Origin: a virus
Lineage: Duplodnaviria > Heunggongvirae > Uroviricota > Caudoviricetes
Virus record (IMG/VR): IMGVR_UViG_2541047918_000003
DNA: 47,928 nucleotides
Direction: 5' to 3' (one strand)
In this document: positions 943 through 32,205 of the stretch, one piece after another
How positions within the stretch are numbered: the first letter of the stretch is position 1
Layout: every line of letters begins with the position of its first letter
Notes under the pieces: generated by a model
The model's database searches: none
What the model was told of the DNA's origin: nothing
What the model saw: only the letters and a program-made list of their open reading frames with translations
Position numbers and translations under genes: made by a program

Positions 943-3002
943 TCCACAACCTCCCCAAGCTGCGCATCTGTTAGCTCTTTATGCCAGAGACGAAAATTCC
1001 TCACATGCCCAAATAAATGGCGTAATCCTGCTGTAGTTTGTCCACCAATGCGAATGGTTGCTGTACTCCGGATATATTCCCATTTGGTTTTAGTTTCGCT
1101 GCTTAACTTACCGTTACTGACTACACATGTGGACCGTTCGGACTTTACCCGCATACCAATAAGCATTTTTTCCAGCCCGGCATTTTCATTTATTCGTCGG
1201 TCTGAACCACCTATATCGCAATACGGAAAACCGTCGTACCCACCTGATGAACCAAACCCCATTACGATCCCCGCATCTGCCTGATGCCGGTATGTGTCAA
1301 AAACACGCGGTGCTGCATTTGGCGTTTTATACCAGTTCTTATGTACCTCACAAAGAACCGTAAAAGGAAGATTATAAAGATTATTCTTAATCGGAACTGT
1401 AACCATATCGCTTGCCCGCGTTACCGGTGCCGTCCCCGTAACAATAAAAGATGATGCGCCTGTACCAGCCTCAATCTGTGGAGTGGTTACATCGAGATAA
1501 TCCCCTGATGCAACCATCTGCCCTGTATCCGGAGAATACTGGACAAAACCACCAACCGTATTTTCTGTTGTATCTGCTTTTAATGTAGCCTCAAAAAATA
1601 TCCAGCCAGTTGCATCATCCTTAACAGACCTTGCTGTAACACGGCTTGTCTGACCTGTCTTGCTAATTATGCGGGTGGTAAGGTTCAGGTTTGCTGCTCC
1701 TATTGATGTCCTTACCTCCCCATCATAATGTTCAAATAAAATACGAACGGCGATATTATCAACTTCACTTTTTACCCGACAGGATATAGTTACATGCTTT
1801 TCGTCCCCTGAAGTATCAACCCCTCCGGTACTCGAATACAGTCCGATAATGGTATGCGCTTTACTTGTACCAACAATCGAATCCTGTACGACAAACCGGC
1901 CATAATTAAACCCGAAACTATCTGTGCCTGTTTCTGTAACGTCCAGTGAAGTTGACTTATTCCACTTCGAAGGGTCTGTACTGTTCTGGAAGAAGTTCGT
2001 TCTTTGTCCCTCAATAAGCAGGCCATCACACTCAAATCGCGGCTCATTAATTTCCGCCGTTTTCAGTTCGCCAGATTTGTTGATATATGTTGCCGTTGAT
2101 GCGCGACTGAAATTAACCTGTTTATCACTGGCAACCTGAACCACATTATCGCCAATCTTCACTTTTTTATAACCCGGAGAATAGCCCGTAATCATATCCA
2201 GCGAATCATTAAAGGGTATCCACACATCCGGCAGCGGCTGTAAAACATATCTGTACGGCTCTGCTGTCTGGTTTGCGTATTCTCTGGCAGCATCTTCACT
2301 TGCTTTTGCTGCCGTCTGGCTTGCTGCCGATGCTTTCGCCGAGTTCGCCGCCGCTGTTTCGCTCACCTTTGCGTTGGCTTCACTGTCTTTGGCATTCGTC
2401 TCACTGGTTTTCGCTGCCGTCTGGCTGGATTTTGCGTTTTTTTCGCTGGCCTTTGTGGCTGTCTCGCTATTTTTCGCGCTGGTTTCTGATTTTTTGGCTG
2501 CTGTCGCGGAGTTTGCCGATGCAGTCTGCGAGGCCGCTGCCGCCTGTGCGCTGTTAGCTGCATTCGTTTCTGAGGTTTTCGCCGCGTTCTTCGATGAGGC
2601 CGCTGCAGTTTCGGATTTCTTTGCCGCCGCTGCGCTCTGTGATGACGCTCCGGCATGACGTGCCACTTCATTCACCATCAGCTCAAAACGGCGCAGTGCC
2701 TCCGGACGGGCATCATCCTCCGTCATGGCACCGAGAAAATCATTCAGCGTACCTGGTCTGGAACCTTCATAGACGGTAATGGTCCCGGCATGTGAAGGCG
2801 GAAAATCTTCAACCAGCAGGGTGACGCTGTACTGGCCATACTCAACATCCATGCTGTAACGCCCGGCTTCATCCGGATTTTCAGAGGCCACCGTGTTCAC
2901 CACCACCGTGCTGCTGGTCCGTCTGGCCTTCAGCACAATGGTGCAGTTCTGTACTGGTTTTCCTGTGCCATCTTTAAGCACGCCAGAAATTTTTACTGTC
3001 AT
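939..3002 (-). CDS. stf: side tail fibre protein (Stf-like)
   Basis: 687 aa; N-terminus MTVKISGVLKDGTGKPVQNCTIVL typical of lambdoid Stf; central Ala/Ser/Thr/Lys/Glu repeats (AAKKSETAA...); divergent C-terminal domain. Confidence 0.8.
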   Translation of the reverse strand: MTVKISGVLKDGTGKPVQNCTIVLKARRTSSTVVVNTVASENPDEAGRYSMDVEYGQYSVTLLVEDFPPSHAGTITVYEGSRPGTLNDFLGAMTEDDARPEALRRFELMVNEVARHAGASSQSAAAAKKSETAAASSKNAAKTSETNAANSAQAAAASQTASANSATAAKKSETSAKNSETATKASEKNAKSSQTAAKTSETNAKDSEANAKVSETAAANSAKASAASQTAAKASEDAAREYANQTAEPYRYVLQPLPDVWIPFNDSLDMITGYSPGYKKVKIGDNVVQVASDKQVNFSRASTATYINKSGELKTAEINEPRFECDGLLIEGQRTNFFQNSTDPSKWNKSTSLDVTETGTDSFGFNYGRFVVQDSIVGTSKAHTIIGLYSSTGGVDTSGDEKHVTISCRVKSEVDNIAVRILFEHYDGEVRTSIGAANLNLTTRIISKTGQTSRVTARSVKDDATGWIFFEATLKADTTENTVGGFVQYSPDTGQMVASGDYLDVTTPQIEAGTGASSFIVTGTAPVTRASDMVTVPIKNNLYNLPFTVLCEVHKNWYKTPNAAPRVFDTYRHQADAGIVMGFGSSGGYDGFPYCDIGGSDRRINENAGLEKMLIGMRVKSERSTCVVSNGKLSSETKTKWEYIRSTATIRIGGQTTAGLRHLFGHVRNFRLWHKELTDAQLGEVVE

Positions 3003-22244: not shown

Positions 22245-22784
22245 ATGGATATTAAAGATAAAATCAATACCATTTTGTTATGTGACATTGCCATCCACCT
22301 AGGTATCGAAACTGATATTGATCCACAGCTTGTTAAATATGCTGTGTCATCTGGTAATGATTGGGTTATCAAGGCCGAATATTCACATTTGGATGTTGAC
22401 GAACCAAGTAAAGAAGATCGTGATTTTGTTACTGCTGTCTTGAATATGTATCGCGGACTTTCCAATGCTTTCAGGAAACTTAGTGATGACGAGCAAAAAG
22501 AATTAGTCCGTGACCATCATCTAAAAATACATGATGGGGCAATTCAGCTCCCAGGTTTCGACGGTAATAATGAATGCGATTACTTCAGTATCATTGAGGC
22601 ATATCAGAAAATTGATCGCTTCCCCGAACAGAAACAGCCCATTGCCAATACTCATTCACGTACAGAACATCTCTATAACGCAATGCTTGATGAGTTTAAG
22701 AAAATTGACGCTGTAAATCGAAGCTGGGATTTATCGAAGGAAGAACTGGCATCCATTCTTTCCACAGCTCCACGCAGTTTCTAA
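22245..22784 (+). CDS. YfbU (UPF0304)-like protein, moron
   Basis: 179 aa; C-terminal half follows the YfbU pattern as recalled (GFD ... Y.AML ... LS..E...I); GAGGG RBS; AT-rich; own terminator. Confidence 0.5.
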   Translation: MDIKDKINTILLCDIAIHLGIETDIDPQLVKYAVSSGNDWVIKAEYSHLDVDEPSKEDRDFVTAVLNMYRGLSNAFRKLSDDEQKELVRDHHLKIHDGAIQLPGFDGNNECDYFSIIEAYQKIDRFPEQKQPIANTHSRTEHLYNAMLDEFKKIDAVNRSWDLSKEELASILSTAPRSF

Positions 22785-24272: not shown

Positions 24273-24623
24273 TTAAGGTTGTGATTCCGGAGGAGTCTTC
24301 AGAGAACCAGTAATTCTTCCTGGTAGCTTTCCTTTGTAGGTTATCCACACATTCTGCGCCTCTAAAATTACGGGGCGCTTTTCCGGCGACTGCTCATCCC
24401 CTTCACATAACCCGGCAGCAACATCCAGGAAGACCTGTCTGATGCTCCTTCTGGCTGCTGCCTCATAAAACCCCAGCGCGGCACCTTCAACACGGTCCAG
24501 CGAGATGTCCAGGTCAAAAATTTCACCGTCAAAGCGTTTTTTGTCCCGTAACGCTAAAGTTACCGTAACTTTATTCTCAAAATTGCGGATCCCTTTCACA
24601 ATCAGTTCATAGTTTTGAGTCAT
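24273..24623 (-). CDS. hypothetical protein inserted between holin and endolysin
   Basis: 116 aa; ATG 4 nt after the holin stop; GGAGAG upstream; no family recognised. Confidence 0.45.
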   Translation of the reverse strand: MTQNYELIVKGIRNFENKVTVTLALRDKKRFDGEIFDLDISLDRVEGAALGFYEAAARRSIRQVFLDVAAGLCEGDEQSPEKRPVILEAQNVWITYKGKLPGRITGSLKTPPESQP

Positions 24624-24627
24624 TGAA

Positions 24628-24843
24628 TTACTCTCCCCGTGCAGCCTTACGACGGTCCTCTCTGATTTTGAAATACAGGTTAGTCAGATATGTCAGGAAG
24701 CCCAGAACCAGACTCCCCAGTACACCAATCGCAGCCCACTGTGACGGACTGACCTGATCAAGCCACTGTAAAAACCAGTAGCCAGCACTGCCTGCGGAGG
24801 TGCCGTAGGCAATGCCCGTTGAAATTTTATCCATGGATTTCAT
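24628..24843 (-). CDS. S: pinholin, phage 21 S-like, dual-start
   Basis: 71 aa [18 protein letters not shown]... matches S21 as recalled; Met1 and Met4 both present; GGAGGT RBS. Confidence 0.85.
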
Positions 24844-24980
24844 AGCCTCACCTCCGCAGCGAACGGATGGCGTAGTTATAAGGGGAGCGAAAAAGAAAGA
24901 ATGCGCGATTGCGCAATATGGTAACGTCAGGGTATTATCCACTGGCTGAATAGATCACTTCACGTTTTTTGTTCCTTGCC

Positions 24981-25008
24981 GCCCGTATCCATATGCGGGC
25001 TTTTTTTT
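24981..25008 (+). terminator. plus-strand intrinsic terminator in the holin-tRNA spacer
   Basis: GCCCG...CGGGC hairpin followed by T8 on the plus strand. Confidence 0.45.
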
Positions 25009-25014
25009 GCATGT

Positions 25015-25044
25015 AAAAAGGCCCCAACACATGTGCGTGGGGCC
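25015..25044 (-). terminator. minus-strand intrinsic terminator downstream of the tRNA cluster
   Basis: GGCCCCA/TGGGGCC stem followed by T5 on the minus strand. Confidence 0.45.
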
Positions 25045-25283
25045 TGAGAGTATACATGGTTTCAGTCAACTGCATGGTGCCGGGTGCCTCCCGGTGAATT
25101 CAGTACCAGCACCTGAATCCGCGATTATCCCATATACCTACTCGCTGATTGCCCCTCCGCACAGGGGGATTCACCATGCCAGTTTCTTTTAACAAACTCC
25201 CCGCAAAACAGACAACTGTCAACCGTCTGAATTGTGAGACATTTAAAAAAAGGCCCGCAAAAGCGAGCCGGGAAAAATAAGTC

Positions 25284-25360
25284 TGGCGCGTTGTACTGGA
25301 TTCGAACCAGTGACCGATTGCTTAGAAGGCAATTGCTCTGTCCGGTTGAGCTAACAACGC
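25284..25360 (-). tRNA. argO: tRNA-Arg (anticodon UCU)
   Basis: 77 nt; cloverleaf; anticodon loop CTTCTAA; T-arm GGTTCGAATCC; encoded CCA. Confidence 0.85.
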
Positions 25361-25373
25361 AGGGTACAGATAA

Positions 25374-25450
25374 TGGACCGCCATCGAGGACTCGAACCCC
25401 GCGCAACCAGCTTCGAAGGCTGGCGCTCTATCCTGATGAGCTAATGGCGG
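25374..25450 (-). tRNA. argN: tRNA-Arg (anticodon UCG)
   Basis: About 77 nt; anticodon loop CTTCGAA; T-arm TTCGAGT; CCA end; exact 5' end uncertain by 1 nt. Confidence 0.75.
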
Positions 25451-25457
25451 TATGTGA

Positions 25458-25533
25458 TGGTGGCCCTTGCTGGATTTGAACCAGCGACCTGGCGATTATG
25501 AGTCGCTCGCTCTCACCACTGAGCTAAAGGGCC
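25458..25533 (-). tRNA. ileZ: tRNA-Ile2 (anticodon CAU, lysidine type; would also score as Met)
   Basis: 76 nt GGCCCTTTAGCTCAGTGG...CTCATAA...GGTTCAAATCC...GGGCCACCA; close to E. coli ileX as recalled. Confidence 0.85.
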
Positions 25534-25573: not shown

Positions 25574-25852
25574 TCATCCGTTCTGGCTGACTAAATCCTG
25601 TACTTCCCGAACCGTCTGCTCAAAACGTTCAGTCTCCAGCTCAACGCCAATTGCACGACGCCCGAGCGCCAGTGCCGCTTTCACTGTCGAACCCGACCCC
25701 ATGAAAAAATCTGCAATCAGGTCACCCGGACGACTGCTAGCGCTGATTATCTGCTGCAGCATTTCTGCCGGTTTTTCGCACGGATGTTTCCCGGGATAGA
25801 ACTGCACCGGTTTATGCGTCCAGACATCGGTATACGGCACCTGCGCCGTCAC
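25574..25852 (-). pseudogene. C-terminal remnant of an N6/N4 DNA methyltransferase
   Basis: 92 aa with the C-terminal motif (...KPAEMLQQIISASSRPGDLIADFFMGSGSTVKAALALGRRAIGVE); N-terminal catalytic part absent; GTG start only 58 nt below tR'. Confidence 0.6.
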
Positions 25853-25910: not shown

Positions 25911-25933
25911 AAAAAAACCCGCTCGCGGCGGGT
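25911..25933 (-). terminator. late terminator tR' downstream of Q
   Basis: ACCCGC CGCGA GCGGGT followed by T7 on the minus strand, about 70 nt after the Q stop. Confidence 0.6.
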
Positions 25934-26003
25934 TTAAGCTGTGTGGCGAAGTAACCACTCTTAACATACTGACATACTTTTTGCGGACCGCACTAATCAT
26001 TTT

Positions 26004-26384
26004 TTACTTTTTTAGCAGCCAGTCGTCCATCTCCAGTCTTACCCCCAGCACAGACAAACATCCGTCAATAAACCCTTCGGCTATCTGCATCTCAATTCGT
26101 ATTGCTTTTTCGCTTTTCTTTCTCGTCCTGGCTATCTGTCTTTTTGATATTCGCAACAAATAATGAGCAATGAGAAGCGAATACTCCTCAGGTTTTTTCT
26201 GCTTCAGACGAGCAAGACAGTTTTCAATGATAAGTCCGTCATCATCGCAGCAGGCCGGACGTGGTTTAGTGGCAGATGGTAAAAGTCCTTTGAATCCGGC
26301 AGCGATCGGAGAATAGTCCACCCCGGTGTTACCACTTGCAGCCCATGCCCCCCAGCGTTCAAGAACCATCTGAATATCACGCAT
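26004..26384 (-). CDS. late antiterminator Q (small Q family, QuuD-like)
   Basis: Starts MRDIQMVLERWGAWAA...; ATG at 26384 with GGAGAAAG upstream; the track ORF starts at an upstream TTG. Confidence 0.7.
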   Translation of the reverse strand: MRDIQMVLERWGAWAASGNTGVDYSPIAAGFKGLLPSATKPRPACCDDDGLIIENCLARLKQKKPEEYSLLIAHYLLRISKRQIARTRKKSEKAIRIEMQIAEGFIDGCLSVLGVRLEMDDWLLKK

Positions 26385-26401
26385 CAACTTTCTCCACAAA
26401 A

Positions 26402-31342: not shown

Positions 31343-32205
31343 GGGCGAACCTCCTTGTCAGAACCATTCAGCCTAGAATCAACAAGTGCAGCGCCAAAAA
31401 CAGCATCACCAACACGGTCGTACAGTTTGCTAGCCAGCGGAGATTCAACGGCCTTAAGCATTGGATAAAGCTGGCTTGTCCAGATTTGATGGATTTCACG
31501 CAAATGCAGGTATACGCCTCTGGCGTTTCGTGCGACAGCTGACATATCAGACGCATCGGCACCTGATAAACTCTTCTCCATCAGGTTAAAGGCGTTGATG
31601 TATGCCTCTTTGAACCGGGCAGCACGTTTACCCGTGAAACCCATAGCAAGAAATGCAAAACCGTCTCGTGTGATTTGATAGCAAGGGAGCTTGCGTGTAC
31701 CGCCGTTCGGTTGATTTACCGAAATCGATGTCTCCGCAAAATTGCGGGCACAAAACTCTGGAGAACAATCCAAAATGCGAATCTTTTTCAGAACATCGTC
31801 ATGACGTTTAGAGAAGAAGTCAGCAACAGCCAAAGAAGATGTAACAGCCTGACCATCAACGATGGCAATTTCAGGTTGAGAGAGGGTTGGGAGAGTAGTC
31901 ATAGTGACAGCCCCGGTAGTCAGTTTTTTAGAAAACTCACCACATGGGACGCCAATCACAGAGGTGGTGAGACGTACAGGGTTGGCGTTACCGGAGACTA
32001 CCGAACCCGGCCCGACCGAAGTCGGCCCTGTACGCCCCACCATAATTTGGGCGTAGCAATGCTCATGACACGAAAAAACCGCATGAGCGCGGTTATGCTC
32101 AGTAATCAATTTCAGGACGCCAATCCCGGCACCCGCTTTATAAGGTGCGGAGACAGTGTAACGTCCCGAAATTGCAGAATCAATATTTGGTCTTGAAATG
32201 ATCAT
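31339..32205 (-). CDS. Rha-family phage regulatory protein; start uncertain (alternative ATG at 31902)
   Basis: Central motif AIVDGQAVTSSLAVADFFSKRHDDVLKKIR; no strong RBS at any candidate start. Confidence 0.55.
   Translation of the reverse strand: MIISRPNIDSAISGRYTVSAPYKAGAGIGVLKLITEHNRAHAVFSCHEHCYAQIMVGRTGPTSVGPGSVVSGNANPVRLTTSVIGVPCGEFSKKLTTGAVTMTTLPTLSQPEIAIVDGQAVTSSLAVADFFSKRHDDVLKKIRILDCSPEFCARNFAETSISVNQPNGGTRKLPCYQITRDGFAFLAMGFTGKRAARFKEAYINAFNLMEKSLSGADASDMSAVARNARGVYLHLREIHQIWTSQLYPMLKAVESPLASKLYDRVGDAVFGAALVDSRLNGSDKEVRP

Follow-up and report, generated by a model that had tools for sequence, protein, structure and literature searches.

In the Escherichia coli lambdoid prophage recorded as IMGVR_UViG_2541047918_000003 (47,928 nucleotides [nt], called the window below), two hairpins with U-tracts face each other between a cluster of tRNA genes and the holin gene. 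In our judgment, each hairpin is probably the intrinsic terminator of one of two convergent prophage small RNA (sRNA) genes, with a short EcOnc08-type RNA on the plus strand. By its alignment and covariance-model score, the plus-strand segment is a diverged, unannotated member of the EcOnc08-type family. The minus-strand partner, judged by its Rfam match, is an STnc100/EcOnc05-type sRNA of about 200–220 nt, the gene of which lies between the tRNAs and the holin. The convergent-pair system itself is published; new is the diverged and unannotated allele of one of its uncharacterised members. The elements of the pair are listed here with their positions in the window.

24902..24915, minus strand: third hairpin, TGCGCAATCGCGCA then TTCTTTCTTT, with a tail to ~24890 (scan); terminator-like in the direction of transcription from pR′
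24909..24914, plus strand: −35-like TTGCGC, within the third hairpin, 18 nt from the −10
24933..24938, plus strand: −10-like TATTAT, 18 nt past TTGCGC
24944..25008, plus strand: predicted EcOnc08-type sRNA of ~62–65 nt, with a putative 5′ end at G24944 or G24945 and the 3′ end in the U8 tract
24958..24968, plus strand: single-stranded motif CUUCACGUUUU, a candidate seed (conservation in alignments A5 and A3)
24972..24980, plus strand: motif UUCCUUGCC, U-rich and anti-Shine–Dalgarno-like, directly 5′ of the terminator, nearly invariant in alignment A3
24981..25008, plus strand: intrinsic terminator, stem-loop GCCCGTAT-CCAT-ATGCGGGC (24981–25000) and T8 (25001–25008)
25044..25015, minus strand: terminator, stem-loop GGCCCCACGCACATGTGTTGGGGCC (25044..25020) and U5 (25019..25015)
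25009..25208, minus strand: STnc100-family sRNA of the EcOnc05 type, 200 nt (Rfam RF02076)

Prophage sRNAs in this slot (AsxR, AgvB, and StxS nearby) rewire the iron, amino-acid, and stress regulation of the host in pathogenic E. coli. With the present allele, a candidate regulator is added to the slot, complete with a predicted promoter, seed motifs, and a terminator, and a terminator that would otherwise be a puzzling "orphan" finds its explanation.

The Two Facing Terminators

With an intrinsic terminator taken as a G+C-rich stem-loop followed within 0–2 nt by at least five U on the transcribed strand, one is found on each strand, and all the coordinates given in the first-pass annotation are borne out. 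On the plus strand, the scan yields an 8-bp stem with five G–C pairs, a 4-nt CCAU loop, and U8. On the minus strand, a bulged stem of ~11 bp is followed by U5; this is the terminal hairpin of the minimum free energy (MFE) fold, and it aligns with the terminator of Rfam STnc100. Because its stem is bulged, the simple scan overlooked it. Terminator-like sites alone are not rare in the region (6 observed in 3 kb vs. 3.1 ± 1.5 expected) and, thus, the significance of the pair resides in conservation and homology and not in the scan count.

The stem of the plus-strand terminator is preserved through differing sequences in nine variants, each of which, folded separately, forms a 3′ stem-loop with five or more U after it. 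Examples of such stems are GCCCGUAU/AUGCGGGC, GCCCGCG/CGCGGGC, CCGCUC/GAGCGG, and CCCGCGC/GCGCGGG. In these folds, the changes between variants are compensatory. The folds were made sequence by sequence instead of with RNAalifold on a MAFFT alignment, in which the 3′ arm of the ACCGC-type stems is misaligned and the covariation under-counted. In eight of the nine variants, the stability of the hairpin favours the sRNA strand (in the window, −12.8 vs. −8.6 kcal/mol, a difference of 4.2 kcal/mol), owing to G–U pairs that turn into C–A mismatches on the minus strand.

A 46-aa open reading frame (ORF) at 24935..25075 on the minus strand runs across both hairpins. Its reading as a protein-coding gene was rejected, with no match in Pfam and a frame broken by the indels between alleles. 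Database records contain related calls: in those of the phages PhiR49_2 and 611R1, a "hypothetical protein" stands beneath the match to the plus-strand RNA, and RefSeq has a partial pseudo-CDS (coding sequence) at 25031–25189 (plus strand), antisense within STnc100. The 46-aa ORF and the pseudo-CDS look like spurious calls over sRNA genes, and ORF calls across the two hairpins are flagged here as probably spurious.

The Predicted EcOnc08-Type RNA on the Plus Strand

Convergent sRNA pairs are located 3′ of pR′ in the prophages Sp3, 4, 5, 9, 10, 11, 15, and 17 of E. coli O157:H7 Sakai (Tree et al. 2014, PMC4104026). Among the antisense members of such pairs, AgvB, AsxR, and EcOnc03 are Hfq-dependent RNAs of 51–60 nt with mapped primary 5′ ends, those of AsxR and AgvB by RNA ligase-mediated rapid amplification of cDNA ends (RLM-RACE); their 3′ regions are conserved and their 5′ regions variable (PMC4104026). 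For Sp4, Table S2 of the same work gives a peak of Hfq cross-linking and analysis of cDNA (CRAC), EcOnc08, at 1179938–1180010 on the minus strand in 5/5 data sets, faced by EcOnc05 at 1179806–1179914 on the plus strand (PMC4104026). Later papers of the field list EcOnc42/21/08 as "function unknown."

IMG/VR was scanned with the STnc100 core and the 200 nt downstream were inspected in 56 distinct versions. Two types of partner occur, and some loci are partnerless. The partners of type A resemble AsxR, AgvB, and EcOnc03, and those of type B share the consensus AGCUGAAAUAUUACUUCACGUUUUGUUGUUUAUUCCUUGCC, followed by a hairpin and U7. The window belongs to type B, as do the Stx2a phage EC3283, PhiR5_1, and the Sakai prophages Sp4 and Sp15. 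Rfam finds neither AsxR nor AgvB in EC3283 and PhiR5_1, so that the convergent partner there is of a different type. In Sp4, the type-B element (NC_002695.2, 1179936–1180040, minus strand) coincides with the EcOnc08 peak and aligns with the window with ~75% identity over 105 nt. The position, just 3′ of an STnc100-type sRNA and downstream of Q and pR′, is also the one observed in the window.

A covariance model, R1, was built from seven type-B sequences with the window excluded. In the window, it matches 24944–25007 on the plus strand over the full model length (58.3 bits, E 1.8e-12), and its second-best match in the 48 kb is a 17-bit terminator. Divergent held-out members of the type (loci L033, L115, and L073) score 51, 35, and 30 bits, whereas the AsxR locus scores 10.8 bits with its terminator portion only. 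On these scores, type B forms a family of its own with the window RNA as a member. The suggestion that the plus-strand terminator ends a small transcription unit is, therefore, supported by comparison, through the homology to EcOnc08, the R1 score, and the promoter geometry described below.

BLAST detects the element in about a fifth of the complete E. coli genomes (1078 of 5426), with up to 6 copies per genome; the EcOnc08-type partner is nameless in Rfam. In RefSeq, nothing is annotated beneath the plus-strand element. The window allele occurs with at least 99% identity in 97 genomes, and the remaining copies have 60–80% identity; no intermediate values occur. The best-matching records listed for the window allele are almost all human isolates. 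These prevalence figures cover E. coli; a scan of genome contigs with the pattern CTTCACGTTTN{2,25}TYCTTRCC was too loose and returned chance matches from unrelated phyla. A literature search by sequence string gave irrelevant matches only, and the supplement of the Pas-sRNA preprint contains no matching sequence.

The predicted 65-nt RNA has an MFE of −22.7 kcal/mol (z = −4.9 vs. shuffles). Within the first motif, CTTCACGT is identical in 7/7 sequences of alignment A5 and, in A3, in all but the group of L073, L113, and L115. In the MFE fold, the CUUCACG motif occupies the apical part of a weak 5′ stem. Hybrids of EcOnc8 obtained in Sakai by RNase E cross-linking, ligation, and sequencing of hybrids (CLASH) involve CUUCACGUUUUG with CAAAACGUGAGG in ECs2692 and UUCCUUGCC with GGCGAGGAA in ECs2472, each as a single read. 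They are anecdotal evidence for in vivo pairing of the EcOnc8 body through exactly the two conserved motifs. No GcvB-target or FnrS-complementary motif was identified in the plus-strand RNA, no genome-wide or sRNA-wide complementarity search having been made.

The Predicted Promoter of the Plus-Strand RNA

The hexamer TATTAT at 24933–24938 had been put forward as a weak promoter candidate; as a −10 it is now likely, with TTGCGC 18 nt upstream in the geometry of AsxR and AgvB. In all 28 distinct variants of types A and B, the arrangement TTGC(G/A)(C/A), 18 nt, and TAnnnT is kept. The −35 is TTGCGC in 27 of the 28, with TTGCAA instead in three loci, always 18 nt from the −10. TATTAT is invariant throughout type B, its place being taken by TAAAAT in type A; in both types, a −10-like hexamer is retained on the sRNA strand only. 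Between the hexamers, 8 of 18 positions are identical in the window and Sp4, and the RNA bodies contain many indels. The comparison across related prophages that had been called for thus comes out with both hairpin and candidate promoter kept. Among the promoter-like sites of the plus strand between 24550 and 24960, the TTGCGC/TATTAT pair ranks first, with a score that two weak sites share, and no other is conserved in relatives. Since the 5′ ends mapped by RLM-RACE in type A fall 6 nt past the −10, transcription would start at G24944 or G24945 (6–7 nt past the −10).

A promoter-like arrangement is also present on the minus strand at 24933–24962 (GTGAAG, 18 nt, GATAAT), where it overlaps the CUUCACG motif and the −10 of the plus strand. 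Most type-B variants retain GTGAAG (L073, L113, and L115 have ATGAAC), and all but L044 retain [G/A]ATAAT; type A has no counterpart. This arrangement could serve the downstream gene as a promoter in the pR′ direction, or arise incidentally from the sRNA sequence.

The third hairpin, which contains the −35, is a weakened and degenerate counterpart of the stronger GGCTGCGCAACTGCGCGGCC-T5 hairpin found after AsxR and EcOnc08 in phage 933W and Sp4. The homology of the window with Sp4 and the esterase-type loci ends at ~24903, at this hairpin, which for that reason is probably a recombination junction.

The STnc100-Family Partner on the Minus Strand

The minus-strand RNA is matched by RF02076 over the complete model (positions 1–206 of 206) with 140.2 bits, vs. 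a gathering score of 47 (E 5.6e-32), and so belongs to the STnc100 family. The northern probe used for EcOnc05 in Sakai is 100% identical to the plus strand of the window at 25116–25150, which assigns the RNA to the EcOnc05 type. EcOnc05 itself, from Sp4, is ~222 nt long by northern (Tree et al. 2014, PMC4104026).

This 200-nt gene, which owns the minus-strand terminator, was overlooked in the first-pass annotation, where the terminator was read as a stop for tRNA and late read-through transcripts. That is not its primary role: it forms the 3′ end of the STnc100/EcOnc05-type sRNA, and it is not the stop of the tRNA cluster since the tRNAs have their own terminator at 25269..25252.

Upstream of STnc100 (25224–25259, minus strand), the stretch TCACAATTCAG is invariant in three aligned loci. 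It contains CACAAT 18 nt past TTGCGG, the latter within the hairpin of the tRNA-cluster terminator. This may be the STnc100/EcOnc05 promoter, built like the plus-strand one with the −35 inside a terminator hairpin. A start near 25225 would give an STnc100 RNA of ~215 nt, compared with the ~222 nt seen by northern.

Comparison with Known Pairs

The STnc100 member of the window is full-length and shows no notable difference from its relatives (RF02076, EcOnc05, EcOnc27, and PasD). It directly follows the tRNA cluster, with neither a toxin nor another moron gene between. In 933W, STnc100 lies 3′ of stx2B (locus L004, 2278–2483) and is met head-on by AsxR (2537..2485; RF02703, 88 bits). The junction between the two terminators there reads GGGGCC-TTTTT-ACATGT-AAAAAA-GCCCG (that is, GGGGCC-TTTTTACATGT-AAAAAA-GCCCG); in the window, it reads GGGGCC-TTTTT-ACATGC-AAAAAAAA-GCCCG, with TTTTTACATGC as the STnc100 side and spacer.

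AsxR (RF02703), AgvB (RF02702), and EcOnc03 occupy the same slot as the plus-strand RNA of the window, convergent with STnc100 and with a nearly identical inter-terminator spacer. In them, too, the −35 TTGCGC lies within this hairpin, and a spacer of 18 nt leads to a TAnnnT −10. All end in a terminator with a U-tail, and the predicted length of ~62–65 nt compares with 51–60 nt for the three. However, the body of the window RNA cannot be aligned with theirs and lacks their conserved 3′ region of ~42 nt, GUAUCUCAUGC.AUUGCCCGAACCCAYUCGGGC. The slot, thus, holds a constant frame of promoter and terminator while the RNA body is swapped.

With EcOnc08 (EcOnc21/EcOnc42; Sp4/Sp15), the window RNA shares the convergence with an STnc100-type sRNA, the location downstream of pR′ and the tRNAs, the promoter hexamers and their spacing, the motifs CUUCACGUUUU and UUCCUUGCC, and the terminator with its U-run. 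It differs by a shorter U/G-rich middle, a different top of the stem (AU pairs), and a different loop. Furthermore, it lies directly upstream of a P21-type holin and not of a 1.9-kb esterase gene, and the window has no counterpart of the upstream EcOnc21 part, hence none of the ~271-nt form discussed below.

Proposed Functioning and Alternative Explanations

In the lysogen, a sigma-70 promoter (TTGCGC, 18 nt, TATTAT) would drive an RNA of ~62–65 nt from G24944 or G24945, terminating at 24981–25008 with its 3′ end at 25003–25008. A hairpin with a U-tail is the established 3′ module of Hfq-dependent sRNAs generally, and the terminator hairpin with its U8 tail would play that part here. The mostly unpaired CUUCACGUUUU and UUCCUUGCC would then base-pair in trans with RNAs of the host or the phage. 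In doing so, the RNA may repress mRNAs in the ordinary way or act as a sponge for a core sRNA, as do AsxR and AgvB in the equivalent position. The facing terminators would stop sRNA transcripts that would otherwise collide in the lysogen. Upon induction, Q-modified polymerase from pR′ would have to cross four terminators on its way to the holin (tR′, those of the tRNAs and STnc100, and the third hairpin), and 65 nt of the late-mRNA leader would be perfectly complementary to the plus-strand RNA. The description of the RNA as antisense to the holin leader, made at the outset, consequently applies to the long late transcript only: the RNA lies ~100–165 nt upstream of the holin start and leaves the ribosome-binding site uncovered.

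More tentatively, and with less than even confidence, the EcOnc08-type RNAs could be seen as short Hfq-dependent regulators that form a second, independent family in the promoter–terminator "cassette" of AsxR and AgvB. The window allele would then have its own host targets via CUUCACGUUUU and UUCCUUGCC and act as a lysogenic-conversion factor at the RNA level.

Several observations weigh against a short RNA transcribed from its own promoter. For the window allele, such an RNA is a prediction from sequence. The promoter agrees with the consensus at 8 of 12 positions, under the threshold of the scan. Its −35 is within a conserved hairpin and its −10 overlaps the minus-strand GATAAT, so that the conservation of the hexamers could partly have another cause. 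A scan of 24850–25060 with Rfam (E ≤ 10) gave only weak terminator-driven matches, and no family fits the plus-strand RNA. AgvB reaches 11.9 bits vs. a gathering score of 56 and AsxR has no match at E ≤ 10, which places the RNA outside that anti-sRNA family; the AgvB match was rejected as a sign of membership and served only as a lead to the position. No target stands out, the CLASH partners being all single reads in different mRNAs, and the search for targets in the window found one 11-mer complement vs. ~0.6 expected, a chance level. Finally, there are the transcripts of Sakai. The only northern for EcOnc08/21/42, with an oligonucleotide over the proposed −10/−35 region (locus L125, 2510–2544), revealed an RNA of ~271 nt, and CLASH reads span the −10 and begin upstream of the predicted start. 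In Sakai, therefore, a longer antisense RNA starts near or inside the esterase gene, crosses the proposed promoter, and stops at the plus-strand terminator.

The plus-strand segment could, then, be the 3′ remnant of such a longer antisense RNA (the ~271-nt EcOnc08/21 of Sakai, starting in the downstream esterase gene), now a relic with little or no transcription after a recombination at the third hairpin swapped the esterase for the holin and removed the promoter of the long RNA. Besides the northern and the CLASH reads, the end of the Sp4 homology at ~24903 fits such a history, and so does the window, in which the upstream promoter of the long RNA has no counterpart and no other conserved plus-strand promoter-like site was found in 24550–24930. 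We nevertheless consider this unlikely. The window allele keeps both hexamers, their 18-nt spacing, a compensatory stem, and U8 despite ~25% divergence, and it persists at 99% identity or more in the 97 genomes; the type-A relatives have the same promoter geometry together with mapped primary 5′ ends. Moreover, the CRAC peak of EcOnc08 has its 5′ edge (1180010) ~5 nt from the predicted start. That comparison involves two versions of the Sakai genome, the offset between which is 0 at Sp4, as seen from the probe positions and from the mapping of the EcOnc8 CLASH read to 1179983–1179940, and about +135 at Sp5 and Sp15. Because of the latter offset, EcOnc42 is to be equated with the upstream, EcOnc21-like part; it does not represent the body of the short RNA.

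One could also view the two hairpins as a transcriptional insulator at a module boundary, in which the plus-strand terminator shields the tRNAs and Q from stray antisense transcription arriving through the lysis cassette and the RNA has no function itself. The terminators are indeed unidirectional and face each other, module junctions in these prophages fall at terminators, and a plus-strand gene of the YfbU family beyond the lysis genes is a possible source of transcription. Such a role, however, does not require the conserved CUUCACG and UUCCUUGCC motifs; the conservation of the hairpin extends to ~40 nt upstream of it and to the promoter-like hexamers, even where the downstream genes differ (esterase vs. 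holin), and Hfq binds the segment in Sakai. These points make an insulator quite improbable. Least credible of all is that the hairpin at 24981–25000 acts on the minus strand, where it might serve to process or stabilise the late mRNA upstream of the holin, with the T-run as an incidental A-tract ahead of the hairpin: the inverted repeat, perfect or near-perfect, does fold on both strands and the late transcript must cross it, but the C–A mismatches make it less stable on the minus strand in the eight variants mentioned above and the U-tract, of at least 6, is always on the sRNA strand. A convergent sRNA pair is, thus, the reading that we retain.

The Prophage Context

Many complete E. coli chromosomes, among them those of ZH063 and E-1246, match the 451 bases around the pair with 100% identity. 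The pair occupies a "moron" slot of the lambdoid late region, in the order Q, pR′/tR′, tRNAs, sRNA pair, and lysis cassette. The neighbouring features are the following.

26399..26004, minus strand: Q antiterminator (Pfam PF06530)
25935..25915, minus strand: strong tR′-like terminator, AAACCCGCCGCGAGCGGGTTT then T7, ~70 nt past the Q stop codon (scan)
25574–25852, minus strand: C-terminal fragment of an N6/N4 DNA methylase (Pfam profile positions 137–220 of 221)
25284..25533, minus strand: three tRNA genes, with a CAT anticodon, Arg-TCG, and Arg-TCT (ARAGORN)
25252..25269, minus strand: terminator of the tRNA cluster, GGCTCGCTTTTGCGGGCC then T7, directly after tRNA-Arg (scan)
24628..24843, minus strand: P21-type class II holin, 71 aa, the first gene of the lysis cassette (Pfam PF04971, E 8.6e-36; RefSeq essD)
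22245–22784, plus strand: YfbU-family gene, beyond the lysis genes

The terminator at 25935..25915 is at the position of tR′, and a short pR′ transcript ending there is the site of StxS in Stx phages. Between Q and the tRNAs, ZH063 has the full methylase gene of 1050 bp and an extra ORF of 198 bp; the prophage of the window thus has a deletion there. The tRNA with the CAT anticodon is called tRNA-Met by ARAGORN and annotated as ileZ/tRNA-Ile in relatives; the counterparts of the three tRNAs in 933W and Sakai are annotated ileZ, argN, and argO. In 933W, a possible terminator is annotated at the equivalent position after argO. The minus-strand genes beyond the holin are a DUF1327/YdfR gene, the lysozyme, and Rz.

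In 933W, a weak Esr41-like match (28 bits, below the gathering score) is located at L004 4627–4704 on the minus strand, antisense and directly past the esterase gene L0105. It is here, between esterase and holin, that the Pas-sRNA preprint locates PasA/PasC. The match suggests a further slot for antisense sRNAs in these late regions.

Elsewhere in the prophage, a C4 antisense RNA (82 bits; 31960–32047, minus strand) adjoins an isrK Hfq-binding RNA (59 bits; 32072–32148, minus strand), both above their Rfam gathering scores. Together, they look like an immunity element of the P1/P7 c4/ant type with an IsrK-like RNA.

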